In this document: piece after piece, positions 12,023 through 31,647 of the stretch
Position numbering within the stretch: the first letter of the stretch is position 1
Layout of the letters: each line of letters opens with the position of its first letter
Assembly: GCA_964489445.1 (NCBI GenBank)
Contig: CAZAYU010000006.1
Span: forward strand, 53,518-117,517
Source: an uncultured Planctomycetia bacterium
GTDB taxonomy: Bacteria > Omnitrophota > Gorgyraeia > Duberdicusellales > 4484-171
Length of the DNA stretch: 64,000 bases
Direction of reading: 5' to 3'
Position numbers and translations under genes: made by a program
The notes under the pieces: model-generated
Told to the model about the DNA's origin: nothing
What the model saw: only the letters and a program-made list of their open reading frames with translations
The model's database searches: none

Positions 12023-12934
12023 TTACCAAAAGGATAAAAAATTATCTTTTAACGAGTAAGTAGAGTAAAACCCCCAAAGCTCTATCCGCTTAGTGCTATA
12101 GACTCGATCTTCATTAAAAAATTTTAGCTTTCTTCCGATAAACGGAAGACCTAATAGAAATCGATTTAAGAAACCAGGAATATTTAACGGTGGACCAACA
12201 TTGAGCGCTTTGCTAAAAACATTAAAAAGCTCATAAGCCGTAAACACTTCTTTATCGGCAATAAAAAACGAACCTTTAAGAAATTCTTTTTTACTTAAAG
12301 AAAAAATCATTGCTTCAACAACATTTTTCACAAAAATCATGTGAAGTTTTCTTTTTCCGTTATCAACTAATGGTAAAATTCGATGTTTTAGGCCAAACAA
12401 TATTCGTCCTGCCATATGTGAAGCACCTTTTCCGTAGACCATGCAAGGACGGAGAATAACAGCTCTTAAACCTTTTTTGCGATATTCACAGACTTTTTTC
12501 TCGCCTTCTATTTTGGACTCACCATAAATACTTGTCGCTCGGAATGGTAAATCTTCTGTTAGCGGAATTTGAGAGTTTCCACTTACTACAGCTACCGAGC
12601 TTAAATAAACTACTCTTTCAACACCTAATCTTAAAGCCAACAAACAAATATTTTCGGTTCCCAGCACATTTACACAATAAAACGAAGAATGTTTTCTACT
12701 ATCCACACAACCCGCACAATGAAATATAACATCAATCTTATAATTCAAAACTTGGCTAAGGGTATCATTTCGGGTAATATCCGCATAGATAAGTTCTACC
12801 CCAAATTTCTTTATATTCTTTGCTTTATTAGAATTCCGTACCAAACAAAAAAGAGAATGTTTACGGCACTCAGTTAGTCTTTCTACTAAATGCCGACCAA
12901 TAAATCCGCTAGCCCCGGTAATTAAAATATTCAT
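12023..12934 (-). CDS. NAD-dependent sugar epimerase/dehydratase (extended SDR)
   Basis: N-terminal Rossmann ILITGASGFIG and catalytic YGESK (YxxxK). Confidence 0.75.
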   Translation of the reverse strand: MNILITGASGFIGRHLVERLTECRKHSLFCLVRNSNKAKNIKKFGVELIYADITRNDTLSQVLNYKIDVIFHCAGCVDSRKHSSFYCVNVLGTENICLLALRLGVERVVYLSSVAVVSGNSQIPLTEDLPFRATSIYGESKIEGEKKVCEYRKKGLRAVILRPCMVYGKGASHMAGRILFGLKHRILPLVDNGKRKLHMIFVKNVVEAMIFSLSKKEFLKGSFFIADKEVFTAYELFNVFSKALNVGPPLNIPGFLNRFLLGLPFIGRKLKFFNEDRVYSTKRIELWGFYSTYSLKDNFLSFW

Positions 12935-13043
12935 TTTGCCCTAATTTCTTTGCACTAACTAACTGCATAGACATTATTTTTATTACTCACTCAGGCAAAA
13001 CATATTTTAAAAATATATACTCCTCAAAGTACTTTTCTGCCTA

Positions 13044-14207
13044 TTAACTAATAACCAATTCGTAAACTTTTCTTGTTTTTTCAGCCTCAAATTGGGAATC
13101 AAACTTTTTTACACTGAAAAACGCATTATTCCCAAGATATTCCCTGAGTTGCTTATTACATATTAACTTGCTTATTGCACTAGCTAAGGAATCTACATCC
13201 GCAAGTTTGGTTAGCAAGCCATTTTCACCATCTTTAACTAATTCTTTTGCGCAAGAAAGATTAGTAAAAACAACCGCTTTCCCAGCAGCCATTGCTTCTA
13301 AGAGCACTAGGGGTAACCCTTCGTATAAAGATGGCAAAACAAAAATATCACAAATATTTAAAAAATCTTTTATATGCGCCGGAGCAACTGGGCCAATAAT
13401 TACCACTTTATCCTCAAGCTTTAATAATTTTATTTGGATCCTTATATTTTTTAACTCACCACAATCCGGACCAACAATAAACAGCTTTATATTACTGTGT
13501 TTGCCTTGATCAATAACTTTCTTAAAAGCATAAATAAGATATGTGATGCCTTTTCTGGGCAATATACGAATTACGGTCAATATTTTCACCTCATCACCTA
13601 GACCATGCATTCTCTTAAAGCAATCATTTAATTCTAAATTTTGATAATCTCTAACCCTAATACAATTCTCTTGGATTGTTGTCTTATTCTCAATATTCTT
13701 ATTTCGCATAATCTTCAGGATCTCTTCCTGCTGAACATTTGATGGACAAAATATCTGGCTAGCCCTTTTAATTATCCGTCTTCCCACAAAATAATCATAA
13801 AACATCTTCAAAAATTTCAAAACCGGATTTCTAAACTGATAGCCATACACTGTTAATAAAAAAGGAATCCCTGTCCTCTTTGAATACAAATAAACAATAT
13901 CTGTACTATAAGAGCCATACTCGAAGGCATGAATTAAATCAGGATTTTCTTTCTTTAAAACGGAAAAAAACTTAGGGATAATTCGGTAAATCTGTAAGGG
14001 ATTACTAGAAACCTTGAGTGAAATTGTTGGCAAAGTTAGTAATGTGTACCCTTTTAGGCTGCGTCGTTGTATTTCTTTCCCTTTCCCCCCGGCAATTACT
14101 ACTACATCATCAGTTTCTGAAAGTGCCGATGCTAGATTATGGACATGTTTCTCTCGACCACCAATAAAATCCGGATAAGCTGTGTGAGTTGTAAGCGCTA
14201 TTTTCAT
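13044..14207 (-). CDS. Glycosyltransferase family 4 (GT-B, group 1)
   Basis: C-terminal EGLPLVLLEAMAAGKAVVFT…GENGLL motif (E-x7-E). Confidence 0.75.
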   Translation of the reverse strand: MKIALTTHTAYPDFIGGREKHVHNLASALSETDDVVVIAGGKGKEIQRRSLKGYTLLTLPTISLKVSSNPLQIYRIIPKFFSVLKKENPDLIHAFEYGSYSTDIVYLYSKRTGIPFLLTVYGYQFRNPVLKFLKMFYDYFVGRRIIKRASQIFCPSNVQQEEILKIMRNKNIENKTTIQENCIRVRDYQNLELNDCFKRMHGLGDEVKILTVIRILPRKGITYLIYAFKKVIDQGKHSNIKLFIVGPDCGELKNIRIQIKLLKLEDKVVIIGPVAPAHIKDFLNICDIFVLPSLYEGLPLVLLEAMAAGKAVVFTNLSCAKELVKDGENGLLTKLADVDSLASAISKLICNKQLREYLGNNAFFSVKKFDSQFEAEKTRKVYELVIS

Positions 14208-14232
14208 AGTTATTAAAATAAATAATTTTGAC

Positions 14233-14973
14233 TTATTTTATAAACGCACTCTTAGGAAATAATGTTCGCCTTTTCAAGGCCAAGGATACCACCCGAAAAA
14301 AAGCTTCAATGATTATCCCTGAGGACATTTTGGATTTTTCCTTTTTTCTCCCGCAAAAAACAATAGGCTGCTCAATTATTATGAATCCCTTCAAAAAAGC
14401 TCTATAAACCATCTCTATTTGGAAAGCATACCCCTTAGAGAGTATCGTATTAAAATTAATGTTTTCTAGCACTTTTCTCTTTACACACTTAAAACCACTG
14501 GTTAAATCATTTAGCGGAATAGCCAGCAAAATTTTAGAAAAAATATTTGCGCTTTTGCTCAATAACACTCGACTTAATGGCCAGCCCAAAACACCCCCTC
14601 CATGAATATACCGACTACCAATAACCAAATCGTATTTTTCCATCAGAGTAACCATTTCAATAATTTTTTCCGGAGAATGAGACAAATCAGCATCAATTTG
14701 GATTATAACATCAAATCCTCTAGATAACGCATAGCCAAAACCCTCAATGTACGCAGTGCCTAATCCCTGCTGACAGTCTCTGGTAATTAAATGTAGGCTA
14801 TGATGTTTTTCCTGCAGTTTTTTAACTTTTTGATATGTTTTGTCTGGAGAATTATCATCAACAACTAAGACTGATAATTGAATATTTAAGGAGTATATTC
14901 TCTGGACAAGAAAACATATATTCTCAGCTTCATTGTACGTGGGTACAATAACTATTGTCTTTCCCGTCATCAT
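14233..14973 (-). CDS. Polyprenyl-phosphate glycosyltransferase, Dpm1/Ppm1-like GT2 (soluble form)
   Basis: IVIVPTYNEAENI, VVDDNSPDKT, IQIDADLSHSP and GSRY motifs typical of dolichyl/polyprenyl-phosphate mannose synthase. Confidence 0.75.
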   Translation of the reverse strand: MMTGKTIVIVPTYNEAENICFLVQRIYSLNIQLSVLVVDDNSPDKTYQKVKKLQEKHHSLHLITRDCQQGLGTAYIEGFGYALSRGFDVIIQIDADLSHSPEKIIEMVTLMEKYDLVIGSRYIHGGGVLGWPLSRVLLSKSANIFSKILLAIPLNDLTSGFKCVKRKVLENINFNTILSKGYAFQIEMVYRAFLKGFIIIEQPIVFCGRKKEKSKMSSGIIIEAFFRVVSLALKRRTLFPKSAFIK

Positions 14974-15031
14974 CTAACCAATCACTTTTTTTTAATAACC
15001 GACCCTTAGCGCTTATTGAGATATGGCCTAC

Positions 15032-16327
15032 CTATAAAAAACCAGAAATTTTTTTGCTTTCAATAATTACATCTTCCATTGATAAATAACGCCAGCCACC
15101 AAATCGGCCGCAGACAATAATGTTATTTTTTAAGAAAAATTGTAAAATTTTCTTCCGAGCCTCAGTATACTGTTTATCATAGATTACATATGCATACTTC
15201 AAATCATTCACGTTACAACAGCAAATTTTATTGCTGCTTTTTAGAATTCCTGTTCTTCGTAATGCTAACTCAACTTCTGATAAGATTGTTTTTTGATCAA
15301 AATCTTTTTGTCCTAGATAAGTTAGTTCAATATATAATGAGCTACTATTCTTCGGAGTTAAAGCTAAAGAAAAATTATGAAAAAATCCTACACGAAAAAA
15401 TGGTATATTCTTTTGCGGAAAATAGACCCAATGAGATTTTGGCCAAACACTGCCGGTTACCCCCAGGTTAATGTTGTACACCGAAAGCCAATTAAGTTTA
15501 TCCAGAGAAGACAATATACCCTTTGGCAATTCTTCGGTAATTCGCCCTAGCTCTGGCAATGGCATAGTAGATACGAGGGTATCAAACTTCTCTTTTCGCC
15601 CACTTTCAAACTCGATGCTCTTTCCTGTTAAATTAATCCTTGTTAACCGCTGGTTTAATTCTATTTTTTCTGTTTTTCGAGAAAATGCACCCACCAGCTC
15701 TTCTATACCTCCTTGTTTAGGATACCAAAAAAAATGGTTATACCCATAATTCTTCTGCCTGCAATCGTTAGATTGATGCTTAAAGTCATCAGGAGAAGGA
15801 ACAACAACAAACCTTTCCGCCCAGTCAGCCATGATATCCTGTAAAGGAAACCTCCAAAACTTTTGATTATAAGGAATCATGAAATATCGAGCAATCCCTG
15901 CACCAAATTTTTTATTTATCCATTCTAGTAAATTTTTTGCAGCAAACTTACTCTTCTTAGCCCGTGACACTTTCATGAAGTTAGATAGGCAATCTTGGGC
16001 GATCTTTTTAGAAAGATAGTTAAAATGCACCTGAAAAGGATAGGGAATATATTTTTTAGATACTCTCACATATGCATTTCTTTTGTGTTTAACAAGGTTT
16101 CCTCCAATTATTTTTTTCACTAAAGCTAAAATTTTTGGATTACGGAAATGTAAGATATGCCCACTATAATCAAAAATAAACCCACGCTTATGAATAGACC
16201 TACATAATCCTCCTGGCTCTTTTTCTTTTTCAAAGATATAAGCTTTTTTCCTTTTTTTATGCAGAAAATAATTTAATGATAATCCGGATAATCCTGCTCC
16301 AATAATTATATTTTTTTTCTTACTCAT
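15032..16327 (-). CDS. FAD/NAD(P)-binding oxidoreductase (amine-oxidase / UDP-galactopyranose-mutase-like fold)
   Basis: N-terminal IIIGAGLSGLSLNYFL…FEKEKEPGGL dinucleotide-binding motif. Exact function cannot be assigned from sequence alone. Confidence 0.5.
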   Translation of the reverse strand: MSKKKNIIIGAGLSGLSLNYFLHKKRKKAYIFEKEKEPGGLCRSIHKRGFIFDYSGHILHFRNPKILALVKKIIGGNLVKHKRNAYVRVSKKYIPYPFQVHFNYLSKKIAQDCLSNFMKVSRAKKSKFAAKNLLEWINKKFGAGIARYFMIPYNQKFWRFPLQDIMADWAERFVVVPSPDDFKHQSNDCRQKNYGYNHFFWYPKQGGIEELVGAFSRKTEKIELNQRLTRINLTGKSIEFESGRKEKFDTLVSTMPLPELGRITEELPKGILSSLDKLNWLSVYNINLGVTGSVWPKSHWVYFPQKNIPFFRVGFFHNFSLALTPKNSSSLYIELTYLGQKDFDQKTILSEVELALRRTGILKSSNKICCCNVNDLKYAYVIYDKQYTEARKKILQFFLKNNIIVCGRFGGWRYLSMEDVIIESKKISGFL

Positions 16328-16388: not shown

Positions 16389-17495
16389 CTATTTCTTCAA
16401 ATCTAAATGTTTTTCAATTTCTTCTAAAAAAGCGGTTAATTTGTGTAAGTTTTGGTTAACATCCTGAGAATCGCAATTGATTTGTTGTAAAGTTTGATCA
16501 ACTATCTGTGTATTGTTAATAATCTTTCCTAATAAATCAACTACTTCTAAAAACCTTTCCTTAAGTAACCCTAAATCACTAGTCGTTATCTCTTTCGCCT
16601 CTAAAAAATTATCATTCAATGATCTTAATTCACTATTAACGGTCTCATGTTTTATAGATAACTCCTGAAATAGACGAATGATCTCAAAAGAATTACCATT
16701 AATAGTTCTTACATCCTCATGGAAAAGCCCTAAAAGCTGTTTTAATTCTTCATTCTTGTTTGCAAAAACATGCAATAAATTATTTATTTCGACAAAGGCC
16801 TCTTTAAAGGACTTTAAATCAGCTTCCACAGACTCTTGGAACGCCTTATCTTGTTTAACCGTTTGGTCTAAAAAGTTGTTCGTACTCAACGATACGTCAT
16901 TTAGAGACTTTAAACCAGCTCCCACAGACTCTTGGAATATTTTGTCCTGTTCAACTGTCTGGCTTAAGGAGTTATCTACGCTTAGGGATACGTCATTTAG
17001 AGACTTTAAACCAGCTCCCACAGACTCTTGGAATATCTTATCCTGTTCAACTGTCTGGCTTAAGGAGTTATCTACGCTTAGGGATACGTCATTTAGAGAC
17101 TTTAAATTGGCTCCCACAGACTTTTGGAATATTTTGTCCTGTTCAGCTGTCTGGCTTAAGGAGTTATTTACGCTTAGGGATACGTCATTTAGAGACTTTA
17201 AACCAGCCCCCACAGACTCTTGGAATATCTTATCCTGTTTATTCATTTGATTTAAGGAGCTAACTACTATGCTTAAACTTTTCACAATTGAAACATTGTA
17301 TATTTTTATATTAAAAATAAAATCACCGATATTAGCTAAAAATCTAAACACAACAGCAACAACCGCCCCAGTTAATAAAACAACACTATACTTCTCCCAA
17401 GAGCCGGCACACCAGATTCCTCCAAGTATAGCGCCAATAAATAATGCACTCCAAGAAAAAGCTATCAACGCCCAACCTATGAATGTACGTTGCAT
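16389..17495 (-). CDS. Membrane-anchored coiled-coil repeat protein (2 N-terminal TM helices + ~5 x 32-aa tandem repeats)
   Basis: N-terminus WALIAFSWSALFIGAILGGIW… followed by repeats (E)QDKIFQESVGAGLKSLNDVSLSVDNSLSQTV, encoded by a 96-bp DNA tandem array. A further heptad-rich alpha-helical tail follows. Confidence 0.6.
   Translation of the reverse strand: MQRTFIGWALIAFSWSALFIGAILGGIWCAGSWEKYSVVLLTGAVVAVVFRFLANIGDFIFNIKIYNVSIVKSLSIVVSSLNQMNKQDKIFQESVGAGLKSLNDVSLSVNNSLSQTAEQDKIFQKSVGANLKSLNDVSLSVDNSLSQTVEQDKIFQESVGAGLKSLNDVSLSVDNSLSQTVEQDKIFQESVGAGLKSLNDVSLSTNNFLDQTVKQDKAFQESVEADLKSFKEAFVEINNLLHVFANKNEELKQLLGLFHEDVRTINGNSFEIIRLFQELSIKHETVNSELRSLNDNFLEAKEITTSDLGLLKERFLEVVDLLGKIINNTQIVDQTLQQINCDSQDVNQNLHKLTAFLEEIEKHLDLKK
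16780..17255. repeat. Tandem 96-bp repeat array (~5 copies, near-identical) inside the coiled-coil gene
   Basis: The motif gatacgtcatttagagactttaaaccagctcccacagactcttggaatat recurs at 16891, 16987, 17083 and 17179, with a degenerate copy near 16795. Confidence 0.85.
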
Positions 17496-18838
17496 ACTAC
17501 CCCCTTATTTACTAACAATTTTTTTTGTGAATCAAGCAATAAATTAAAAATGCCTGGAATTTCTGCGTTTAAGCCATTGAGCCACTTGTCAAAATTAAGC
17601 GTGAACGCTTTTATTAATCTTTGATTTACAATAGGATGCTTCTTAATAAGAAAATCCTCCCAATTATTATGTAAATCCAACATTAATAGCAACCTTTTAG
17701 AAAATAGCGATAGGCTGGTATCCCTGCCCCCTAATATATTTTCCAGTAAAATATTCAGAGTTCCGCCAATAAATACAGAATCTACTAATCTTTTTTTTAA
17801 AAGATTACCGGTTAAAAGAGCAAATACTAAAAAATTTTGAAAAAAACCAGAACGCTTATTTAATAATGTTCGTAATGAACTACTTTTTGAATCTAAATGA
17901 TAAAAAAAAGTCAAATCTACCATACTAAAGTATAAAACAGAAAAAGGGATATTTCTTATATCTTGTATTGAATTTTTTTTCTGATAAATGAACAAAAAAT
18001 CCTGGAAAAAAAGATACATGCAAAGTAAAAAATCAATATACATTAACTTTAATCTTTTATGTAAAAAGTCATCGGTCATAAATCTATTGGCTAAACCAAT
18101 ATTCTCCTTTATCTTCACCGACAATTTTTGATAATCACGATAGTACCCTTTTCCCTGATGATACATGAAATTCCAATTCCAATACGCACTAAACAAAGAA
18201 GAAAGGCTGTCCTTTTTTGTATGGTAGACTAGGGCTTCAGGCACATAGACTAAACTGTATCCCAACCTTTTAACTTTCTTTGATATATCCACATCCTCAT
18301 AGTTAGTCGCATATTTTTCATTATAGCCACCTGAGTTTAAAATACATTTTTTCCGAAAAACTGTGTTAGATCCAAATAAAAACCGAATCGAACTTGTTTT
18401 TTTCTCTCCCCACTCCTGTTTCATATGAACCGCACGCCAAGAATCAATGATGTGCTTTGTCTTTCTTTCCAGCATTCTCCCCCCCACACCCCCTACTTTT
18501 GGTGAAATAAAACTATTCATTAAATTTTCAAGCCATTTTTCATCAACTACACAATCTGCATCTACAGCTGCTATAAACTCACCATTGGAACTTTTAACTG
18601 CTGTATTTCTTACTGCCGCTAACCCTTTGTTGGTTTTGTGTTTGATTAATTTAACTGGAAATTTTAAGGCTAATTTGCTGGTTTCATCTACGGAGCCATC
18701 GTCAATAACCAATATTTCTTCTATCGGATAAGACTGTTTTAAAACCGCCTTTAGGCAACGTTCAATATACTCTGCCGCATTAAAGCATGGTATATAAACA
18801 GTAACTTTAAACTTTGCAGTATTTCTTTTTTTACTCAT
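17477..18838 (-). CDS. Glycosyltransferase family 2 with C-terminal membrane domain
   Basis: VYIPCFNAAEYI…VIDDGSVDET…AVDADC (DxD) GT-A motifs. The C-terminal ~200 aa is hydrophobic. Confidence 0.75.
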   Translation of the reverse strand: MSKKRNTAKFKVTVYIPCFNAAEYIERCLKAVLKQSYPIEEILVIDDGSVDETSKLALKFPVKLIKHKTNKGLAAVRNTAVKSSNGEFIAAVDADCVVDEKWLENLMNSFISPKVGGVGGRMLERKTKHIIDSWRAVHMKQEWGEKKTSSIRFLFGSNTVFRKKCILNSGGYNEKYATNYEDVDISKKVKRLGYSLVYVPEALVYHTKKDSLSSLFSAYWNWNFMYHQGKGYYRDYQKLSVKIKENIGLANRFMTDDFLHKRLKLMYIDFLLCMYLFFQDFLFIYQKKNSIQDIRNIPFSVLYFSMVDLTFFYHLDSKSSSLRTLLNKRSGFFQNFLVFALLTGNLLKKRLVDSVFIGGTLNILLENILGGRDTSLSLFSKRLLLMLDLHNNWEDFLIKKHPIVNQRLIKAFTLNFDKWLNGLNAEIPGIFNLLLDSQKKLLVNKGVVCNVHS

Positions 18839-20061
18839 CTCAACGTTTTGAGCTTTTCTTCTAATATTTTTTCTGTTTCGTCTAGTTCTGCCAATAAGGA
18901 ATTTATTCTTTCCTTACTAATTTCTTTATCTATCTTAAGTTGAGACATTTTGTTTCTTTTTCCCAAATAACCTTTAAATCGCCTCAATAAAGCAAATAAT
19001 GGTTCTCGACACAAAAGATAAAATCTTAATCTTTTTAACCACCTTTCGCATAGCTTAACGAAATAAACAGATAACCCATTTTTTTTAACTAATACAGCAT
19101 TAAAACTCAGCCTGCTCTTTAAGTTGTCCTGTTTAAACGATTCATCGTAGCAGCTCATCATGCAACCCACACAGCCTTTACTCTTTATTTTTTCGCGTAT
19201 CCGATTATGATGTGCAGAATCCCATAAATCAAACAACTGTCGCTCTTTAATATTACCAATAAGTTGTTTTTTATCTTTAATAACCCAGCATGGATAGATG
19301 TCCCCGTTTGAAGTTATCGGGCATGAAGCCCATAACGCACCACAAGCACTCCCATTAATAGATTGTTTGCTTAAATAGAGTGGTATCTTTTGCAAGTAAG
19401 CCTGTGGATTGGTAGCAATCCCAGTTTTTTGACAAAATATTATAATTTTTTCCATTATCTGTTTTAAAGCATGCGCTTGCTGAATAGAAATAAAAAAATC
19501 CGACTCCCGCGTTCGATCGTTCATGAATAATGCATTAAACGGCTGAAATTTTAACGTAGTAACTTTATGCTGAAGAGCTATTTCGGCAATTGTATACAAA
19601 TGCCGAAAATTATACTGAGAAACTGTTGAAGCAATTGTTGCTTCGATCTTATTCTTGTTTAGATTACATAAAGCAGAGATTGCTTTTTGGAAAGAGCCTG
19701 GCCCTCTTAATGAATCATTAACTTCTTGCGGCCCCTCTATTGAAATATTAACAACATCTGTCCCAACTTCAGCTAAAGCAAAAGCAATCTTTTCATTTAT
19801 TAAGCTTCCATTCGAAGTAATACATACTCGCATATGTTTTTTTTTAGTGAATAAAATCAAATCAAATATATCATCCCTTAATAACGGTTCGCCACCAGAA
19901 AAAACTACTGTCGGAGCGCCAATTCTAAACGCATCCTCAATAATTTGCTTGCATTGCACATTAGGAATATCCTGAGGTTTGTTTTTAGGAACTTCACACA
20001 TCTTGCAGGAGGAATTACAGCGATTAGTTATCGAAATAATAACTTCTTTTGGACTATGCAT
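18835..20061 (-). CDS. Radical SAM/SPASM protein (family B, tandem paralogue 1 of 4) with coiled-coil C-terminal tail
   Basis: SITNRCNSSCKMCEV followed by FSGGEPLLRDD. Confidence 0.8.
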   Translation of the reverse strand: MHSPKEVIISITNRCNSSCKMCEVPKNKPQDIPNVQCKQIIEDAFRIGAPTVVFSGGEPLLRDDIFDLILFTKKKHMRVCITSNGSLINEKIAFALAEVGTDVVNISIEGPQEVNDSLRGPGSFQKAISALCNLNKNKIEATIASTVSQYNFRHLYTIAEIALQHKVTTLKFQPFNALFMNDRTRESDFFISIQQAHALKQIMEKIIIFCQKTGIATNPQAYLQKIPLYLSKQSINGSACGALWASCPITSNGDIYPCWVIKDKKQLIGNIKERQLFDLWDSAHHNRIREKIKSKGCVGCMMSCYDESFKQDNLKSRLSFNAVLVKKNGLSVYFVKLCERWLKRLRFYLLCREPLFALLRRFKGYLGKRNKMSQLKIDKEISKERINSLLAELDETEKILEEKLKTLR

Positions 20062-21202
20062 AGTTCTCTATGATTTTTCGATATTCCTGTAATGCTTTTA
20101 TGGCCTTTTTAATTATTTTACTTTTATTACATCCGGAATCAGCATCCATTTTGGAGAAAAAAGTACTTATAATTTTTCCCAGAGAATCAGATTCAGGGTT
20201 AGCCCAACACGTTTGCAAACATGGTTTTTGGCAAATCTTCATTAGCGCTCTTGCTTTATCAGCCTCTTCTGTATGCAAACAGAAATCCAACCCTGCCTCA
20301 GCAATGTTACCAAAAGAAGATCCACAACTTCTTACCTCTCCGTCCGGACCAATATTAATAAACACAAAAGGATTACACTTCCACATATCACAACTTAAAG
20401 ATCCTTTAAAGTAATCTACCCATAAGTATGGATCATGCAAAAAAACTACTAAACCATTAGCCATCTGATAGCCAACAATCTTGCCTATCTGTTCCTTTAA
20501 TTTATCGATACCGCTGCCCGTAATCCAGAATGGAGCATCGGCAGAAGTGTTTTGCATGTCATTTTGAGCAACAATTACCGGATGATAAACCAAACACTCA
20601 ACACCTAGCTCTTTTACAATATCAATAATATTAAAAAGCTCCGATACATTTTCCTTCATTATGGTCGTCCATACTGAAATCTGCGGACCACTACCGATTT
20701 GCCTTTTAGCATCCACTAAATTGCTTATTGCCTTTAATGCATTATTAAAACTTCCTTTTTCCCGAATAAAATCATGAGTAAATTCTGTTGCACCATCCAA
20801 GGAAATAGCTATATTCTTTAGCCCCGAATTTACTATTCGCTTGGCTAGCGCCTTATCAATTAATGAACCATTGGAAACTATTTCTATTTTTACTTTATTC
20901 ATTACAGCATGATCGATTATCGAAAATATATCTCTTCTTAAAAAAGGTTCTCCACCTGTAAGAGTTACAACTGTATCCCATCCCCAACCAGCAATATTTT
21001 CCAACGCAGCATTAACCGTTGATTGAGGTAATTCCTGCCCCTTCAATATTTTAACAACACCACACATTTTGCAGCTATATGTGCATTTATGGCTTAAGCT
21101 AACATATACCCAGCACGGTTTAGCAAACGGATAATTTAACACTTCTGAAAAGTAATAGGCTAAATTAGCTTCAAATTGACGTAAATAACTCGAATTGGTC
21201 AT
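20054..21202 (-). CDS. Radical SAM/SPASM protein (family B, paralogue 2 of 4)
   Basis: SLSHKCTYSCKMCGV followed by LTGGEPFLRRD, with C-terminal CQKPCLQTC. Confidence 0.8.
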   Translation of the reverse strand: MTNSSYLRQFEANLAYYFSEVLNYPFAKPCWVYVSLSHKCTYSCKMCGVVKILKGQELPQSTVNAALENIAGWGWDTVVTLTGGEPFLRRDIFSIIDHAVMNKVKIEIVSNGSLIDKALAKRIVNSGLKNIAISLDGATEFTHDFIREKGSFNNALKAISNLVDAKRQIGSGPQISVWTTIMKENVSELFNIIDIVKELGVECLVYHPVIVAQNDMQNTSADAPFWITGSGIDKLKEQIGKIVGYQMANGLVVFLHDPYLWVDYFKGSLSCDMWKCNPFVFINIGPDGEVRSCGSSFGNIAEAGLDFCLHTEEADKARALMKICQKPCLQTCWANPESDSLGKIISTFFSKMDADSGCNKSKIIKKAIKALQEYRKIIENYA

Positions 21203-22297
21203 TTATTTTTTAATACAGTTAAAATTTTTTAAAAAACACAAAGTATCATTTAAAACATCTGACGGAAAATATACACAATCCTGCAAACAATGTTCCTTGC
21301 ATTTTCTAGCCTTTATCCGCATTTTCGCAGCAGAAATTGAATACCAAATTGATTTGAGACTTTTTTCTTTTAAATCACCATAAATACCCGAACAACTCCA
21401 AAGTTTCCCATCAGAAGTAATCACTATCCGTTTAATACCCTCATAGCACTTAAAAGAAGACTGGGGGCGCTTGCCTCTAAAATAAGCAGGCAAGGATTTC
21501 AATATGGCATCATCCGTATATACACAAGGATTACTATCGGTATGCTTAATCCTAATTATTTTTGGTATAATTTCTTCAAGCTGGCCAATCATTTCTAGTG
21601 ATGGCCAAAGAGGGCTATTCACTTTCTCGTACATTTTTGTATTGCTAAAAAGTAAAGGCTGAAAAACAATGATATTACATTTCTTTAATCGAGCAAACTC
21701 AACCATCGGAAGCATATCGCCAATATTACTGTTCATTATTGTAAAATTTATGCCTAATGAAGGAAAATATGAATTTTTCTTGGCTTTATAATAATTTAAT
21801 TTATCAATATTTCTTTCAGCACAAGCAAACATTCCTTCACTACGAATAAAATCATTGCACTCTTTAAGTCCATCTAAAGAAACAGTAATATGGCTTAAAG
21901 GAATTTTAATTAACCGCTGGATAATATCATCACTAAGTAGCACTCCATTAGTAATAATATCTACCATTTTAATGCCGCTGCTCTTGGCAAACTCCACCAT
22001 ATCCAATAATTTACTTTTTAAGAATGGTTCTCCGCCAGAAAAAATAAGATGCCGAACGCCTAATTGTTTTATCTGAAGAATAATATCCTTCACCTCCGCA
22101 AACGTAAGCTCATGCTCACATTCCCTATCTTCCGGATCTTTAGAAATATCACACATTTTACAATTTAAGTTGCAGCGATTGGTTAAAGAAAAATAAACAT
22201 GTTCAGGGGGAACTAGCGGAAAAGAAAGCAAACGACTAAAAGAAAATCCTATTTTTTCCTGAAGAGTAATCCACTCTTCCTTTGAATTATTTACCAT
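21203..22297 (-). CDS. Radical SAM/SPASM protein (family B, paralogue 3 of 4)
   Basis: SLTNRCNLNCKMCDI followed by FSGGEPFLKSK, with C-terminal CKEHCLQDC. Confidence 0.8.
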   Translation of the reverse strand: MVNNSKEEWITLQEKIGFSFSRLLSFPLVPPEHVYFSLTNRCNLNCKMCDISKDPEDRECEHELTFAEVKDIILQIKQLGVRHLIFSGGEPFLKSKLLDMVEFAKSSGIKMVDIITNGVLLSDDIIQRLIKIPLSHITVSLDGLKECNDFIRSEGMFACAERNIDKLNYYKAKKNSYFPSLGINFTIMNSNIGDMLPMVEFARLKKCNIIVFQPLLFSNTKMYEKVNSPLWPSLEMIGQLEEIIPKIIRIKHTDSNPCVYTDDAILKSLPAYFRGKRPQSSFKCYEGIKRIVITSDGKLWSCSGIYGDLKEKSLKSIWYSISAAKMRIKARKCKEHCLQDCVYFPSDVLNDTLCFLKNFNCIKK

Positions 22298-23330
22298 AGC
22301 TTTTAATTATTTTTACCAAATTTTCTGATTCTTGCCGAGAGTAACAACTTTGTAAACAGAAATTTTTACACTTTTCTGAATGTAACCTTAGCCTCCAAGC
22401 TGCTTTTGATTTCCAGGCTTTTTTTAGAGCAATTTCGTTGAGGTTTCCACAAACCCCATGACAAGAATAAACCAACGGTTGGCGCCTATTATAACATATA
22501 AATACAGTTTTAAAACCACCAAAGCAAACCCAATCTCTTTCCAAAACCTCTTGCTGATAATACTTGACCAACAATTTGAGCGATGGTTCTTCATAAACAG
22601 TAATATGAACAGGTTTGTATTCTTCTATTTTTAAAATTTCTTGTTTTAAGCAGTCAATGTTCTCCTTCTTCACCCAAAATTCAGGCAATTGTTTATTCAT
22701 GAAATTTGCGTTATCATTAATCAACGGCTGAAAATTAATAGAATCAACTCCTAGCTCATCAGCAAAACGCACCAAGTCAAATAATTCATTGATGTTATTA
22801 TCCATAACAGTACAAGCAATACCTATAGAAAAACAACTTACTTTCTTTTTCAAACAATTAATCCGTTTAATGTTTTTTACTATTTTTTTAAATACTCCCT
22901 CTCCGCGAAAAAAATCATTAGTTTTTTCTAATCCGTCAAGAGAAACGTGAATATGCCCGGCTTTAGCTCCAATTAAAGCGTCAACTGTCCTCTCATCAAG
23001 CAATAGACCATTAGTGGTAACAATACTTTGTAGCCTGTTCTTGTCAGCATAACGACAAAGTTCGTAAATATCTTTGCGTAACAAAGGCTCTCCGCCAGTA
23101 AATAACACTTTTTTTATTCCGTACGCTTTTGCCTCGTCGATAATATGAAAAATCTGGACAGTAGACAGCTCTTCTTCTTGAGGTAATAAATTAACAATAC
23201 TGCACATTTTACAATTTAAATTGCACCGATAAGTAAGTGAAATCTGAATAACTTCCGGAGAGACTAAGGGGTAATTAATTTTCCGAGAAAGCCAAAATAA
23301 AATATTTTTTATTAAATGTGCCCTATTCAT
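22287..23330 (-). CDS. Radical SAM/SPASM protein (family B, paralogue 4 of 4)
   Basis: SLTYRCNLNCKMCSI followed by FTGGEPLLRKD, with C-terminal CKNFCLQSC. Confidence 0.8.
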   Translation of the reverse strand: MNRAHLIKNILFWLSRKINYPLVSPEVIQISLTYRCNLNCKMCSIVNLLPQEEELSTVQIFHIIDEAKAYGIKKVLFTGGEPLLRKDIYELCRYADKNRLQSIVTTNGLLLDERTVDALIGAKAGHIHVSLDGLEKTNDFFRGEGVFKKIVKNIKRINCLKKKVSCFSIGIACTVMDNNINELFDLVRFADELGVDSINFQPLINDNANFMNKQLPEFWVKKENIDCLKQEILKIEEYKPVHITVYEEPSLKLLVKYYQQEVLERDWVCFGGFKTVFICYNRRQPLVYSCHGVCGNLNEIALKKAWKSKAAWRLRLHSEKCKNFCLQSCYSRQESENLVKIIKSYGK

Positions 23331-23349: not shown

Positions 23350-23853
23350 TTAAATAAGACAATTACCAAAACCACGCGCTTCACCGTCATAGCGATTCTC
23401 TAGTACTGAAGAATAGTTTTCATTAAAACATCCAATTATCTTAGAATCAATACCGGGACCATCAAAAAATACAGTAAAAAAAGATTCTGGATTTTCCATA
23501 TAAAATATCTCCCGAACCTTATCTATATTCTCAACTGTGTAAATAGTGAATATTTTTTTGGTAAAAAAATAAACCGGAATAAGCGAAAGAGCGCTAAAAA
23601 ATACCGGTAATAACCGTAAAATAAAATCGGATTTCTTCGCAACCACCATCCAATAATGTAAAACAAAAATAAACAACGGCTGGTGGTCAAAAGACCCTAG
23701 ATTGTGGATAATGCCCTTTAAATTTTTCTGGGCAATTTCAATGAATGCCAAATCATACACCCCAAGGCTACCTCTAGTTGCGAAAAACAAACGTAACCCA
23801 AAAGCTAAAGCCATAATACTTGTAAAAATAAGCGCTACTTTGTTATTCCTCAT
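23350..23853 (-). pseudogene. Truncated N-terminal fragment of a GT-C (ArnT/PMT-like) membrane glycosyltransferase; likely gene remnant
   Basis: The first ~100 aa (…YDLAFIEIAQKNL…HQPLFIFVLHYW…) match the N-terminal loop/TM region of ArnT/PMT-family enzymes. The ORF then stops after only 167 aa, with a non-membrane tail, and abuts the next gene. Confidence 0.35.
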
Positions 23854-27019: not shown

Positions 27020-27793
27020 CTACCTAGACTCAACAATTTCTTGAGATAAGTTCCGTAGCAGCACTTTAACGTGCTCAAGGCGAATGTTAATGTCCTCATT
27101 TAGCTGTTTTAACCCATTATTATTAAGAACTATTTCGCTGTTAACATTATCTAGTGTAAAAGATACACTCCTTCTCTGGGCTGCTGAATCTTCGCTTGCT
27201 GAAGACAATAAGCTACTTAATGATTGAACCGAATTATCAAGTCTATCTATCTCTTGTTTTACATTTAAAGAAGAAAGAGATTCGGGTAATAGCTGTAAGG
27301 TTTCATTAATTTTTTCAAATGCTGAAGACAGTAAGCTACTTAATGATTGAACCGAATTATCAATTTTTTCAAATTTATCTTTTAAAGTACAATCAATACG
27401 CTCTTCAAAAACATCTATCTTGGCTAGCACCTGTCTCATCTCCAAAGATAAACCACTGCTTAAAGAGTTTATCGAGTTATTCATTCCGCTTAGCTCTTTT
27501 GAAATAGCCAATATTTGAGAATAAAGGAATGAAGAAATATTAAAAAATATTTGGGATATATTTCCAAGCACCCTAACAATTGTTCCCAAAAGAATGCTTA
27601 CTAGAACAACCATCAACCCACTAAAAAATAATTTTGGATTAGTAAATCTAGCAAGCATCAAGTAACTGCCTCCTAAAAAGCCAAAGACCACAATCAGCCA
27701 AGAAAGAACCATCAAAATAACAGTGGTGGGAATATTTTTTGTCTTCACAACCATAGCATAACCTCCTTCTTTATTACATTTTTTTGTTGCCAA
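27020..27793 (-). CDS. Membrane-anchored coiled-coil protein (2 N-terminal TM helices + Ser/Leu-rich repeats)
   Basis: TM helices TTVILMVLSWLIVVFGFLGG and LMVVLVSILLGTIV. Repeated DNSVQSLSSLLSSA(F/S)E units sit 41 aa apart, matching DNA repeats at 27198 and 27321. Confidence 0.55.
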   Translation of the reverse strand: MATKKCNKEGGYAMVVKTKNIPTTVILMVLSWLIVVFGFLGGSYLMLARFTNPKLFFSGLMVVLVSILLGTIVRVLGNISQIFFNISSFLYSQILAISKELSGMNNSINSLSSGLSLEMRQVLAKIDVFEERIDCTLKDKFEKIDNSVQSLSSLLSSAFEKINETLQLLPESLSSLNVKQEIDRLDNSVQSLSSLLSSASEDSAAQRRSVSFTLDNVNSEIVLNNNGLKQLNEDINIRLEHVKVLLRNLSQEIVESR

Positions 27794-29956
27794 TCAATAA
27801 AAGACTTTTATCTTACCCGAATAATATCGGTATCTTCCTTTAGAAAAAATATTATCATCATCACTAAAACTTTTCCTGTAAATTATTCCTCTTGCCTGGA
27901 GCTGTTTATTAGTATTGTGAATCGCTAGCAAATCACTTGCTACCAATAATTTATCTGGCTCAAAAACGACTGAAGGAAAACCTTTAATGACTCTCATTAA
28001 TCTATTACGCTGGGTCTTCAACTTTCCTTGAGAAAACCTAACTAGCTCTACCCAAGAATCATTAAATTTATTAGACAACTTGGACGTTAAGCCATCAATA
28101 TCCAACAATTGATATTTATCAGACAGCATAAGATTTGTATCATAACGATCAATTTGTATTCTCTGCTCCAAAAACATACTTATTTCAATTATTAAACAAT
28201 GAGGATCGTTTAACTTGACTTTCCAAACCTGACACATCGGAAACCTAGTATATTCCCCTTTGGCAATTATAGTATCATTGACACACCTCACTTTCCATGA
28301 TGCCTGCAGAGAATCAATCCAATGGCCCAAAGAAAAAACAGAGGTATATAAGCCAAAATGTTTGGTTAATTCAACGCCATTATAAAAAATTCTCCCCTTC
28401 CCTTGGTCAAATAAAAACTCTAAAGCTCTTTTTTTTATAGATATCTTCTGCTTTTTATACCCTTCATTTGCTAATATTTTTTGTGTTATTTTTTTATTAA
28501 TATCAGACATTCCTTTGCTGTCTAAATACCCTCCCACTCGATTAGTGTAAAATTTTCTGCCACACTTTTCCCAAAAAATATCCATTCTTCTTAATCGTTC
28601 ACCGTAATTATTTGAAAGATCTTGAGTTTGCCAATCATAAATATTGTTGCTCTGTATATTATACAAGTTAAGATTATTATGAATATACGAATGCGGCTTT
28701 ATTGTAAATACTGATGAATCTAACCCGGAAATATATCTTCTGTTATTTTCAATAAAGTGCAATGTTTTTTCAAAGTCCTTAATCGTCTCGGTTGGAAAAC
28801 CAACAATCCAGTTAGTAAAGACAGCAATGCCGGAAGAATACGCATCTACAATATTTTGACGCGCAGCATCAACTGTAAATGGCTTTTTCATGCTGCGCAG
28901 AACATCATTTGATGCGCTTTCAATTCCAAAATTAAGATACTCACAGCCTGATTGTCGCATTTGCTCAAAAAGCTTTCGATTCATGTCCAGTCTTACAGAA
29001 ATACTCGCCCCCCATCTTGTAATTATATTATTTTTAATGATCAGTTTACACATTCTAAGTAAGGAATCTAAATCTGCATTGATTAACTCATCGTTAAAAT
29101 GAAAAAACTCAACCTGGTAATTATTTCGCTGCACATTCATCTCCTCAACGACAGATTCTGGACTTCTCTTACGAAAGACATAGTTAAAAAAATAAGGATC
29201 ATTACAAAATGCACAATGGTTAATGCACCCTCTACTTGTTAAAATCGGCAAAAATTTCAAATCAGTATAAGCGTTTAAGGAATAACCAGAAAAGTCCGGA
29301 TAAGGCAATTTATCTATATTCTTGCTCAAAGGGCGCACTTTATTGATTAGCAATGAATAGCCCTCTTTAGCGATTATCCCCTCGCATCCTTTTAAACTTT
29401 TTCCACTATTTACCCTTTCGACAATTTCCGGAAAGACATCCTCCCCTTCTCCCACAACGACAATGTCAATAATTCTCATAATATTCTTAATTCTCACGCC
29501 AGGGTTTATTGCACCATCAAAGATATTTACATTTTCAATAATAAATGGTCCGCCAAAAATTATTTTGGCGTTTTTACTAAACTCTTTAATTTTTTTTGCT
29601 AAAAGAACACTTACATTGACCGATGTGTTATACACTGTAAACCCTATTAAATCAGGAGTAGTATTCAAAATACTTTTAGCCCAGAGATCTAGTACCTTTC
29701 CACCCAAAAAATTAATATTTCTGATAGTACGTTCATCTTCCCATTCATGCTCAAGAGTATTCTGTGTCCAGAATGATTCAGACTTATAATCCCAATTTCT
29801 TTTTTCAATATCATTCACCTTATTGTAAAGGCTGATATTAAAATCAAACTGAAGCACATTATTTCCACGCTTTTCTAAGACTGATTTTAAGTAAGCCGGA
29901 CCTATTTGCGGCATCCGAGGATTAAACATTGGACATTGTATAAGGGCGATATTCAT
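27794..29956 (-). CDS. Cobalamin-binding (class B) radical SAM protein with C-terminal ~200-aa domain homologous to the Wzt C-terminal repeats
   Basis: MNIALIQCP B12-domain start, …FGGPFII…, and ILTSRGCINHCAFCND. The C-terminal GKGRIFYNGVELTKHFGLYTSVFSLGHWIDS…IDRYDTNLMLSDKYQ aligns to each repeat in ORF 54112..56841. The track start is GTG at 29974; ATG with a GGAG RBS is at 29956. Confidence 0.75.
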   Translation of the reverse strand: MNIALIQCPMFNPRMPQIGPAYLKSVLEKRGNNVLQFDFNISLYNKVNDIEKRNWDYKSESFWTQNTLEHEWEDERTIRNINFLGGKVLDLWAKSILNTTPDLIGFTVYNTSVNVSVLLAKKIKEFSKNAKIIFGGPFIIENVNIFDGAINPGVRIKNIMRIIDIVVVGEGEDVFPEIVERVNSGKSLKGCEGIIAKEGYSLLINKVRPLSKNIDKLPYPDFSGYSLNAYTDLKFLPILTSRGCINHCAFCNDPYFFNYVFRKRSPESVVEEMNVQRNNYQVEFFHFNDELINADLDSLLRMCKLIIKNNIITRWGASISVRLDMNRKLFEQMRQSGCEYLNFGIESASNDVLRSMKKPFTVDAARQNIVDAYSSGIAVFTNWIVGFPTETIKDFEKTLHFIENNRRYISGLDSSVFTIKPHSYIHNNLNLYNIQSNNIYDWQTQDLSNNYGERLRRMDIFWEKCGRKFYTNRVGGYLDSKGMSDINKKITQKILANEGYKKQKISIKKRALEFLFDQGKGRIFYNGVELTKHFGLYTSVFSLGHWIDSLQASWKVRCVNDTIIAKGEYTRFPMCQVWKVKLNDPHCLIIEISMFLEQRIQIDRYDTNLMLSDKYQLLDIDGLTSKLSNKFNDSWVELVRFSQGKLKTQRNRLMRVIKGFPSVVFEPDKLLVASDLLAIHNTNKQLQARGIIYRKSFSDDDNIFSKGRYRYYSGKIKVFY

Positions 29957-31647
29957 TGATGTCTCCGCTTCCACTCTTCGGCAAAATTAATATTTTCCGG
30001 CCGAACGAGCCTTGAGAATTCATAATATATAACAAACCCTTGGGCAGTTATTCTCTTTTTATGCCTGATATCATGCTCACTTAAATACTCATCCATTATA
30101 TCAATATGCCCAAACTTATGATTACCAGTAAATACATAAGCATACCTATTAGCTCTATCTACAGCCTGTTCATAATAATCATATCTCTCGCCAAAGTGGC
30201 AATCATCATATATTACATCCCCAGTACTTGAACAACTCCAAATGCCCCTGCACGATGCAATGATTTTCTCCTTGCTTTCAAAAACTAGCGGCCACTTAGC
30301 ATCATAATACGTATAGACGTAATGAATATCTTTTTCCAGTAACTCACTAATAAGCTGCCTTAGCCCCGACATCGACCAACGATCACCATTAATGTAGAAA
30401 TTTATATTTCCAAATAAACTAATTAAAATAATGCTTACAGCTAAAACAACTGAAATGATCTTACCTAGAAAATTAAACTCAAAGAGCTTTATTATAAACA
30501 AGGAAATAAAAATATAAAAAAAAGGATACAAAACCATTGCATAATGATCCCTCCACACATAATCACTACTATACTGGCTGAAAGAATAAAGAAGCGAATA
30601 GAACAGAGGAAAAACAAGTAACAACGATTCCGGATTAATTTTTTCGGGAATAACATTGTGCTTGGTTGAAGGTATGACTCCTTTTATGACATTCTTTAAA
30701 GATTCTCTATTCAACCAAATAAGAAAACAAACGGAAATAACCACCACGAAATAATATAAATAATTAATAAATGATGCGTTAAAGAAAGGAATTAATTCAA
30801 AGTTAAACGAATCAGGAATGCGATAAAAAAATAAATCCTTAATACGGATAAATCTCTCAGCAATATAAGAAGAAGTAAATAAGAACTTATCAACTTCCAG
30901 CCCCATCAACGGACTACTGTATCCACTGAAAATAGCATACAATAAAGGACTAATTCCAACAGTAAAAGATACAACAAAAATAAGAAACTGAACCCGCAAA
31001 AAAAATAACTTGTCAAAAAGATACCAATAAAACATGATAACCAAAACAAAAATAAATGCAGAAACATGATACGCAATAGCTAAGCCGGATAACACGCCTA
31101 AAATTATCCAATAGCCATACCTATCTAATGGTAGCGCCTTGCGCTTTGAATTAAAAAAAATGCTAAAAAAAACAAAAAATATTAAAATATCAAAAAACAA
31201 TATATCATGATGATTAGCCACACAGTATAAGCTATAGCGAAAATACGAAGGAATAGAAAAAATATACAGTAGACTAGTTAGTAGTGCAACCTTTCGACTA
31301 AAAAATTTATTTGTAAATGTAAATAAAATAACCAGTATTCCTATACTAAATATTAACGGAACCAGTCTCAAGGAAATTGTGGAAACACCAAACAATAAAA
31401 ATAGGGGAACCGCCATAAACGAGGACACCACGGAGCCCAACCCATAAAGATGAATATATGAAAGGTGTGCCTGCGTATTATTTCCTTCTAATATATGTTT
31501 TGCTAAAATCCCTCTTACTCCTTCCTCAGACATAACTACATTACAAGCAGAATATAAAACCAATAAACGTAATCCTACCAATGTTATTATCAACAAACTA
31601 ATAACAAAAAACTTATTCTTCAATATACCTAATTTCATTTTTACCAA
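29953..31647 (-). CDS. Polytopic membrane protein, probable GT-C fold glycosyltransferase (ArnT/PMT_2-like) with C-terminal soluble domain
   Basis: About 11 predicted TM segments. N-terminal loop motif SEEGVRGILAKHIL resembles the DE(x)R…IA…M loop of ArnT/PMT enzymes. The ATGA overlap with the upstream gene implies translational coupling. Confidence 0.45.
   Translation of the reverse strand: MVKMKLGILKNKFFVISLLIITLVGLRLLVLYSACNVVMSEEGVRGILAKHILEGNNTQAHLSYIHLYGLGSVVSSFMAVPLFLLFGVSTISLRLVPLIFSIGILVILFTFTNKFFSRKVALLTSLLYIFSIPSYFRYSLYCVANHHDILFFDILIFFVFFSIFFNSKRKALPLDRYGYWIILGVLSGLAIAYHVSAFIFVLVIMFYWYLFDKLFFLRVQFLIFVVSFTVGISPLLYAIFSGYSSPLMGLEVDKFLFTSSYIAERFIRIKDLFFYRIPDSFNFELIPFFNASFINYLYYFVVVISVCFLIWLNRESLKNVIKGVIPSTKHNVIPEKINPESLLLVFPLFYSLLYSFSQYSSDYVWRDHYAMVLYPFFYIFISLFIIKLFEFNFLGKIISVVLAVSIILISLFGNINFYINGDRWSMSGLRQLISELLEKDIHYVYTYYDAKWPLVFESKEKIIASCRGIWSCSSTGDVIYDDCHFGERYDYYEQAVDRANRYAYVFTGNHKFGHIDIMDEYLSEHDIRHKKRITAQGFVIYYEFSRLVRPENINFAEEWKRRHQ

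Follow-up and report, generated by a model that had tools for sequence, protein, structure and literature searches.

Here, we examine a quartet of adjacent radical S-adenosylmethionine (rSAM) genes in a 64,000-nt stretch of DNA (hereafter the window) from an uncultured bacterium placed in the Omnitrophota, covering positions 53,518 to 117,517 of contig CAZAYU010000006.1 (assembly GCA_964489445.1). All four lie on the minus strand, beginning with D (22287-23330, 347 aa) and continuing with C (21203-22297, 364 aa), B (20054-21202, 382 aa) and A (18835-20061, 408 aa), the last being the most divergent. A-D are four distinct, anciently diverged enzymes of one small SPASM/twitch-type rSAM clade, which belongs to the phylum Omnitrophota, going by the source names of close homologues. 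We consider it probable that they carry out four non-redundant radical tailoring steps on the product of family 2 glycosyltransferases (GT2), and that this product is exported by an ABC-2 transporter.

Relationships and gene order of the four paralogues

Since the paralogues are only 26-35 % identical to one another in pairwise comparison, against 38-67 % between each of them and its own orthologues in 30 genomes (D 47-64 %, C 45-67 %, B 52-66 %, A 38-57 %, other loci against the window), their functions are likely to be non-redundant. A neighbour-joining tree with 200 bootstraps recovered each orthogroup as monophyletic (A in 196, B in 200, C in 200 and D in 189 replicates) and A+B+C+D as a clade in none; as the groupings A+B+C+D, C+D, B+C and A+B appeared in only 0-1 replicates, the tree does not settle the deep order. 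When the 21 rSAM modules of the window were each compared with all the others, the closest module to D was the C-terminal module of open reading frame (ORF) 44900, 22 kb off (36 %, 208 bits), ahead of its neighbour C (35 %, 192 bits), and A was about equidistant from many modules. The initial annotation had proposed that one rSAM gene was iteratively duplicated in place, but pairwise identity, the orthologues in 30 genomes and the tree lend no support to recent in-situ copying. Rather, the orthogroups, their synteny and the tree together indicate that the duplications predate the split of these Omnitrophota lineages. It had also been considered that the paralogues might be much older than the cluster; they are indeed very old, but the cluster is equally old, and for that reason an ancestral tandem origin may still be accommodated.

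A search of 5.8 billion proteins returned more than 120 clusters of D relatives at 48-69 % identity and a comparable set for A at 40-53 %, whose names, where given, are merely 'radical SAM protein' and whose sources are mostly Candidatus Omnitrophota/Omnitrophica metagenome-assembled genomes (MAGs). Some 19 metagenome contigs (ENA, JGI, Logan) encode proteins identical to those of the window.

Gene order was compared with the window ORF by ORF in contigs reached through homologues (L007-L009) and in 30 loci (L010-L039) picked up by scanning GTDB species genomes, every one of these 30 being an Omnitrophota MAG or an automatically labelled MAG. C lies directly downstream of D in every one of the 28 loci with room after D, and D-C-B-A is contiguous in 16 loci, a 17th (L019) ending after B. 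Extra genes are inserted solely between C and B (L007, L009, L012, L039); in L033 the pair B-A is placed upstream, and two loci (L040, L041) carry B-A, the glycosyltransferase gene GT2a, a gene for a small membrane protein (the tail protein) and one for a B12-binding rSAM enzyme (B12-rSAM), without D-C. GT2a follows A wherever the sequence reaches that far, and the order across the phylum is D-C...B-A-GT2-small membrane protein. The quartet is made up of two conserved sub-modules, D-C and B-A-GT2a-tail protein-(HpnJ-like B12-rSAM), and is not a local duplication burst.

The smallest version of this arrangement, in L026, is a cassette of ~13 kb and 10 genes encoding Wzm, Wzt, a GT2-rSAM fusion, D, C, B, A, GT2a, a 112-aa membrane protein and a B12-rSAM, with genes for leucyl-tRNA synthetase and ComEC on one side and for a major facilitator superfamily protein, an FMN-binding protein and PurN on the other. 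The gap between GT2a and the B12-rSAM holds the 112-aa tail protein only. So compact a cassette makes the pathway testable through heterologous expression.

Radical SAM identity and C-terminal cysteine patterns

All four proteins match Pfam Radical_SAM (PF04055; A E 2e-23, B 2e-21, C 2.5e-21, D 5e-23) with scores of 77-84 bits (cut-off 29.5), and four adjacent significant matches cannot be attributed to chance. The CxxxCxxC motif is intact in each (A CNSSCKMC, B CTYSCKMC, C CNLNCKMC, D CNLNCKMC) and is kept in 20/20, 22/22, 29/29 and 31/32 orthologues across the four orthogroups, and GGEP[FL]L[RK] is likewise present in all (A GGEPLLR, B GGEPFLR, C GGEPFLK, D GGEPLLR). The view of the initial annotation that these are four rSAM enzymes with a GGEP motif and complete catalytic cysteine triads is therefore borne out. 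Some of its finer motif claims apply to part of the set. The extended N-terminal motif that it gave for the quartet is exact in C and D, with A having SITNRCNSSCKMC (starting SITNRC) and B SLSHKCTYSCKMC (reading SLSHKCTYSC), and the C-terminal CxxxCLQxC is shared by B, C and D, A having CVGCMMSC (Cx2Cx3C) instead. The same C-terminal motif had been reported for three distant ORFs; it recurs in the C-terminal module of 44900, whereas 49096 reads CRNNCVQFC and 47001 is without such a motif. ORF 52202 has CAWPCLLPC as its counterpart. As to membership of the same broad family (family B), this holds for the C-terminal modules of 44900 and 49096, and also for 52202.

The C-terminal domain of A-D is cysteine-rich and SPASM/twitch-like. 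Relative to the Pfam SPASM cut-off of 21.5 bits, A (33.3) and C (27.3) score above and B (17.6) below, and D gives no match. Common to all four is a core of five cysteines, C-x17-C followed after ~30 residues by Cx3Cx3C (Cx2Cx3C in A). The cysteines conserved within the orthogroups are C269, C279, C290, C294, C321, C325 and C329 in D (n=7, C-terminal), C207, C284, C302, C333, C337 and C341 in C, C203, C276, C293, (C308), C324, C328 and C332 in B, and C80, C240, C247, C258, C297, C300 and C304 in A, so that each paralogue has extra cysteines of its own (C80 and C247 in A, C203 and less strictly C308 in B, C207 in C, C279 and C294 in D). The canonical seven-cysteine SPASM signature, CX9-15GX4C-gap-CX2CX5CX3C-gap-C, binds two auxiliary [4Fe-4S] clusters, and the twitch domain of BtrN, MoaA and SkfB is a truncated SPASM fold holding one auxiliary cluster through 3-4 cysteines. 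A-D, with 6-7 cysteines in other spacing, do not carry the canonical signature, and by this pattern their domain would be neither a canonical seven-cysteine SPASM domain nor a minimal twitch domain. With their differing cysteine sets, the four orthogroups would represent four new rSAM subfamilies with a plausible substrate class.

The AlphaFold2 model of D (pLDDT 88, pTM 0.88), which is without metals, shows a hairpin (275-288), a third strand and helices, and then the cysteine triad. In the model of A (pLDDT 83), residues 307-407 form four long helices, corresponding to a conserved basic helical C-terminal extension of ~100 aa; A, whose orthologues are all ~400 aa long, is without the N-terminal helix of B-D, where the N-terminal extension measures ~30 aa at most. 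In Foldseek searches, the nearest structures to the models of A and D were SkfB, BlsE, DesII, SuiB, anSME, MoaA, PqqE and GDGT-MAS, at 12-24 % identity. SkfB and BlsE matched D best (BlsE TM 0.71/0.75) and BlsE matched A best (TM 0.61/0.75). A sequence-profile search of the PDB gave remote matches only, mostly over the core (SkfB 1.5e-22, BlsE 4e-20).

Assignment to a named NCBIfam equivalog was rejected, because only generic matches below threshold were obtained (NirJ, AhbD, MoaA, MftC and others); N_Twi_rSAM, for example, scored 61-72 bits under a cut-off of 170. The haem-modifying enzymes NirJ, AhbC and AhbD were rejected at 76-112 bits against cut-offs of 500-650, with tetrapyrrole genes not found nearby, and HpnH at 64 (B) and 68 (D) bits against 225, with shc/hpn core genes not found in the scanned window proteins.

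Partner genes, fusions and exporter

The gene that follows A, GT2a (17477-18838, minus strand, 453 aa), encodes a glycosyltransferase (Pfam Glycos_transf_2, E 3e-31) whose orthologues directly after A are 35-48 % identical to it. Its best NCBIfam match is MftF (136-138 bits, cut-off 280), followed by PgaC/IcaA (100 bits). Next comes the tail protein (16389-17495, minus strand, 368 aa), which has no Pfam or NCBIfam family. It carries two N-terminal hydrophobic segments, read as transmembrane helices, an RFLANIGDF motif, 33-aa coiled-coil repeats and a conserved C-terminus ending in QINCDSQDVNQNLHKLTAFLEEIEKHLDLKK. In hidden Markov model searches, a tail protein of 112-389 aa was found directly after GT2a in every locus reaching that far (for example L026 16129-16467 and L030 15944-16687). 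The family pattern is an RMFANIGQMxFD motif, a variable coiled-coil spacer and a C-terminal QxNCDSKDxNQNIxQIxxFFEQIEKHLDLKK, and these last ~30 aa look more conserved than the enzymes themselves. Its single cysteine is a serine in L008 and absent in L036, and since it is not invariant a cysteine-based cross-link on the tail is unlikely. The tail protein might partner the GT2 in the manner of PgaD/IcaD, or it might serve as a molecular ruler like WbdD. Its length in the near-identical contig L001 is 336 aa. A second copy of the family (27020-27793, minus strand), comprising the N-terminal membrane part without the conserved C-terminal motif, sits between two B12-rSAM genes.

In other loci the tail protein is followed by an HpnJ-like B12-rSAM, which scores 262 bits (L026) and 230 bits (L030), with next-best models at ~135-170 bits. 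Its best match in the window is the B12-rSAM at 31702-33126 (minus strand; HpnJ 208 bits over nearly the full length, cut-off 577), at 26-31 % identity and with uncertain orthology.

Gene fusion is the strongest clue to the substrate. The glycosyltransferase GT2c (53160-54107) and the family-B rSAM at 52202-53242, together 52202-54107 on the minus strand, are split in the window with an 83-nt overlap, whereas in at least 18 other loci they form one fused ORF (representatives P0331, P0341 and P0363); the split may reflect a frameshift or faulty assembly, or it may be genuine. In L033, a 1028-aa fusion (12560-15646) joins a C-like family-B rSAM, a B12-rSAM part and the GT2a orthologue, and the tail protein comes next. 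D is matched at E 1e-30 or better by only 138 representatives among 1.84 billion, at least 9 of which have a GT2 + rSAM + rSAM architecture; others chain 3-4 rSAM modules or join B12-rSAM, GT2 and rSAM. None is a fused D-C-B-A protein, the long relatives fusing paralogous modules at 35 % identity or less. The window also holds rSAM proteins with two modules (rSAM+rSAM or B12-rSAM+rSAM) at 44900-46984, 47001-49001, 49096-52071 and 4711-7491, all on the minus strand; in L007, L020 and L036 each half instead has a gene of its own, next to that of the other half. Neighbouring rSAM genes frequently fuse or split in this system.

The transporter consists of a Wzm-like permease (56848-57642, minus strand, Pfam ABC2_membrane) and a 909-aa Wzt-like ATPase (54112-56841, minus strand, Pfam ABC_tran), most like the exporters of galactan and teichoic acid (NCBIfam TagH and galactan Wzt/Wzm, below cut-off). 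The ATPase bears three tandem domains of ~220 aa (residues ~215-450, 464-678 and 692-906) that belong to no annotated family. One such domain also ends the B12-rSAM at 27794-29974 (minus strand; aa 513-724, BLASTP E 1e-20). This sharing suggests, from sequence, that exporter and enzyme recognise the same molecule, and the domain may be a common substrate-binding module.

Proposed mechanism and alternative explanations

In the mechanism that we favour, two GT2s would work on the cytoplasmic side of the membrane and make a sugar-containing product, either a glycolipid or a lipid-linked glycan. Each rSAM enzyme would reductively cleave SAM at the predicted [4Fe-4S] cluster of its CxxxCxxC motif, and the 5'-deoxyadenosyl radical would abstract a specific hydrogen from the GT2 product, while the putative auxiliary Fe-S domain at the C-terminus would handle an electron or the substrate. 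Four different tailoring steps would result, for which oxidation, epimerisation, decarboxylation, dehydration or C-C bond formation are options, and the extended Wzt/Wzm transporter would export the finished molecule. A-D probably work as a membrane-associated complex with the GT2. The multi-subunit radical enzyme suggested in the initial annotation is indirectly favoured by the many representatives in which related modules are joined to one another (2-4 rSAM modules per chain) and to GT2 domains. We infer a sugar product from the GT2-rSAM fusions, the Wzm/Wzt exporter and the domain shared between Wzt and a B12-rSAM. The same reading is suggested by BlsE being the best global structural match of A and D, with DesII close behind, and by the window's genes for GT4 and GT-C-like glycosyltransferases and for DegT, epimerase, YdjC, carbamoyltransferase and WbuX-like proteins.

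Several observations weigh against this explanation. The minimal cassette of L026 contains neither an initiating phosphoglycosyltransferase nor sugar-nucleotide genes. The case for a complex comes from fusions of paralogous relatives only and not of A-D themselves, and no fusions occur among the top 120 homologues of A or D. The type of reaction is a guess, with best NCBIfam equivalog scores of ~100 bits against cut-offs of 265-650; none of the four orthogroups has a characterised member, and their top sequence matches include the peptide-modifying SkfB, StsB, WgkB, MftC and PqqE as much as sugar-modifying enzymes. Finally, MftF, the nearest named relative of GT2a, glycosylates a peptide-derived cofactor.

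Three other explanations have to be set against radical tailoring of a glycosyltransferase product. By analogy with HpnH and HpnJ in hopanoids, Tes and GDGT-MAS in tetraethers, and predicted ladderane genes, the enzymes might act on a membrane lipid or on the lipid part of a glycolipid, with the GT2s adding the head group. We regard this as unlikely, even though the conserved B12-rSAM of the cassette is clearly HpnJ-like (208-262 bits), there are weak matches to HpnH, Tes and the 'ladder' B12-rSAM, GDGT-MAS is among the fold neighbours, an LPG_synthase_TM protein is encoded in the window, and 'ladderane-like' biosynthetic gene clusters have been called in Omnitrophota MAGs (PMC9902471). All such family scores are far under their cut-offs, isoprenoid, squalene-hopene cyclase and fatty-acid genes are absent from the minimal cassette, HpnJ itself has been proposed to act on the glucosamine moiety and not on the hydrocarbon (PMC13459092), and a glycolipid substrate already falls within the explanation that we favour. 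Quite unlikely, in our estimate, is the maturation of a cofactor or of a ribosomally synthesised and post-translationally modified peptide (RiPP), in which A-D would modify a ribosomal peptide, such as the C-terminus of the tail protein, and GT2a would then glycosylate it, as MftC and MftF do in mycofactocin. What makes it worth weighing is that the sequence and fold neighbours include SkfB, CteB, SuiB, PqqE, MftC, StsB and WgkB, that MftF is the best match of GT2a, that the tail protein co-occurs with the cassette and conserves its C-terminus, and that the B12-rSAMs weakly match models of RiPP C-methyltransferases. However, no PqqD or RiPP recognition element (RRE) domain was found in the scanned proteins from the window, L026 and L030, and the short N-terminal extension of B-D leaves only ~30 aa; neither a peptidase nor a short precursor ORF is present in the minimal cassette; the tail protein seems to be anchored in the membrane and its cysteine varies; the exporter is of the Wzm/Wzt type and not a peptidase-containing ABC transporter; and the rSAM modules are fused to GT2 and not to RRE domains. 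It follows that rSAM/SPASM-like domains alone are no ground for reading these genes as RiPP or 'ladderane' clusters.

The remaining explanation, that of the initial annotation, holds that one rSAM gene was duplicated on the spot, its copies all applying one chemistry to different positions within a repeating unit, and we think it very unlikely. A-D do share a fold, motifs and the five-cysteine C-terminal core, and their deep branching leaves room for an ancestral tandem origin. Against it stand their low mutual identity and the separate orthogroups kept across the phylum, the absence of an exclusive A-D clade from every bootstrap replicate, the resemblance of D to the C-terminal module of 44900, as great as that to C, and the extra conserved cysteines and the termini of A, in which the paralogues differ.

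Beyond four tailoring steps on a GT2 product, we tentatively put forward, as a possibility that we hold somewhat doubtful, a phylum-wide, hitherto undescribed pathway with the quartet as its unvarying centre, in which at least six rSAM enzymes (the window has more than 20 rSAM domains), physically coupled to GT2s, use radical chemistry such as carbocyclisation, C-C cross-linking or C-methylation to remodel a glycolipid or sugar polymer, with Wzt recognising the radical-made modification and exporting the product. If true, this would define a new class of cell-envelope glycoconjugate. The Omnitrophota are a widespread group of uncultured bacteria, frequently ultra-small and perhaps dependent on hosts. 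Most known rSAM enzymes with sugar substrates contribute one isolated step to an antibiotic or cofactor pathway. Our literature search found no published description of a train of rSAM enzymes joined to glycosyltransferases and a polysaccharide-type exporter, or of these Omnitrophota cassettes. The superfamily is well known; the four orthogroups, the cassette and the coupling of rSAM to GT2 match no curated family or paper that we found.

Relation to known systems

The SPASM/twitch rSAM enzymes (anSME, SkfB, PqqE, MftC, CteB, SuiB, BtrN, MoaA) are the best sequence and fold matches of A-D, with which they share the partial TIM barrel, CxxxCxxC, GGE and a C-terminal β-hairpin flanked by cysteines and followed by a helix and cysteine cluster. 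Identity is only 15-21 %, however, and A-D differ in having no RRE, a cysteine pattern other than that of the seven-cysteine SPASM domain, and a context of glycosyltransferases and a Wzm/Wzt exporter rather than peptides or cofactors. Mycofactocin clusters show the same pairing of an rSAM/SPASM-type enzyme with a GT2 whose best match is MftF, but here an MftA-like precursor, MftB (RRE), MftD and MftE were not found, and scores stay below cut-off (MftC 70-98 of 265, MftF 136 of 280).

Among sugar-modifying enzymes, DesII, like BlsE, acts on the sugar ring. Both are single enzymes working on nucleoside or nucleotide sugars in antibiotic pathways, and identity is 12-19 %, whereas here 4 to more than 20 rSAM domains stand alongside GT2s and an exporter. 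BlsE, which is also the second-best profile match in the PDB, is a cytosylglucuronate decarboxylase, that is, an rSAM sugar-acid decarboxylase whose substrate is a hexuronic acid (PMC3715490). The hopanoid side-chain pathway of HpnI (a GT2), HpnK (a YdjC deacetylase) and HpnJ (a B12-rSAM) sets a precedent for a radical enzyme that remodels a sugar once it has been transferred (PMC13459092). The window has the same trio of GT2, YdjC-family protein (36006-36890) and HpnJ-like B12-rSAM, but hopanoid core genes were not found, the HpnJ scores lie far under 577, and A-D have no counterpart in that pathway except for weak similarity to HpnH.

Pathways of the Wzm/Wzt type (O-antigen, galactan, teichoic acid) likewise place an ABC-2 permease and an ATPase with a long C-terminal extension near glycosyltransferases. 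In Escherichia coli O9a, this extension of Wzt serves as a carbohydrate-binding module and recognises the modification that terminates the chain; here, Wzt carries the three unannotated domains, found also on a B12-rSAM. No Wzm/Wzt-type pathway with a train of rSAM enzymes was found in the literature.

Operon structure and further content of the window

The tight packing noted in the initial annotation was recovered at all three junctions of the quartet, namely an 8-nt overlap of A and B (20054-20061), B abutting C (0 nt, 21202/21203) and an 11-nt overlap of C and D (22287-22297). It extends downstream, where the TGA stop of A and the ATG start of GT2a share 4 nt (ATGA) and GT2a overlaps the next ORF (16389-17495) by 19 nt. 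A terminator scan found no terminator-like sites on the minus strand within the array, and a promoter scan found promoter-like sites no more often than in shuffled sequence. Because stops and starts overlap and no internal minus-strand terminator is present, A-D are predicted to be co-transcribed and translationally coupled in one operon. Just upstream of D lies a 167-aa ORF (23350-23853, minus strand) without a family match, called as 154 aa in some near-identical contigs; inspected by eye, its N-terminus looks similar to the initial transmembrane helices of GT-C (ArnT/PMT-like) glycosyltransferases, and the ORF may be a truncated fragment.

Across the whole window (1-64000), gene-like ORFs of at least 150 aa are all on the minus strand, GC skew is steadily negative and GC content is ~33 %. 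The window contains 22 CxxxCxxC motifs, spread over 17 proteins, and 21 of these motifs mark rSAM modules; the second motif of ORF 43718, at its C-terminal end, falls outside this module count. Such a density of rSAM modules is unusually high for a single locus. Compared with L026, the cassette is inflated by three more GT2s, two GT4-type glycosyltransferases and a GT-C-like protein, and the window further encodes DegT, an epimerase, AsnB, a carbamoyltransferase, the YdjC-family and WbuX-like proteins, GDSL/TPR proteins, a UGM-like flavoprotein and the LPG_synthase_TM protein. Two adjacent GDSL-hydrolase and TPR proteins (40168-41403 and 41458-42696, minus strand) have nearly the same Pfam pattern and, unlike A-D, look like a genuinely recent tandem duplication.

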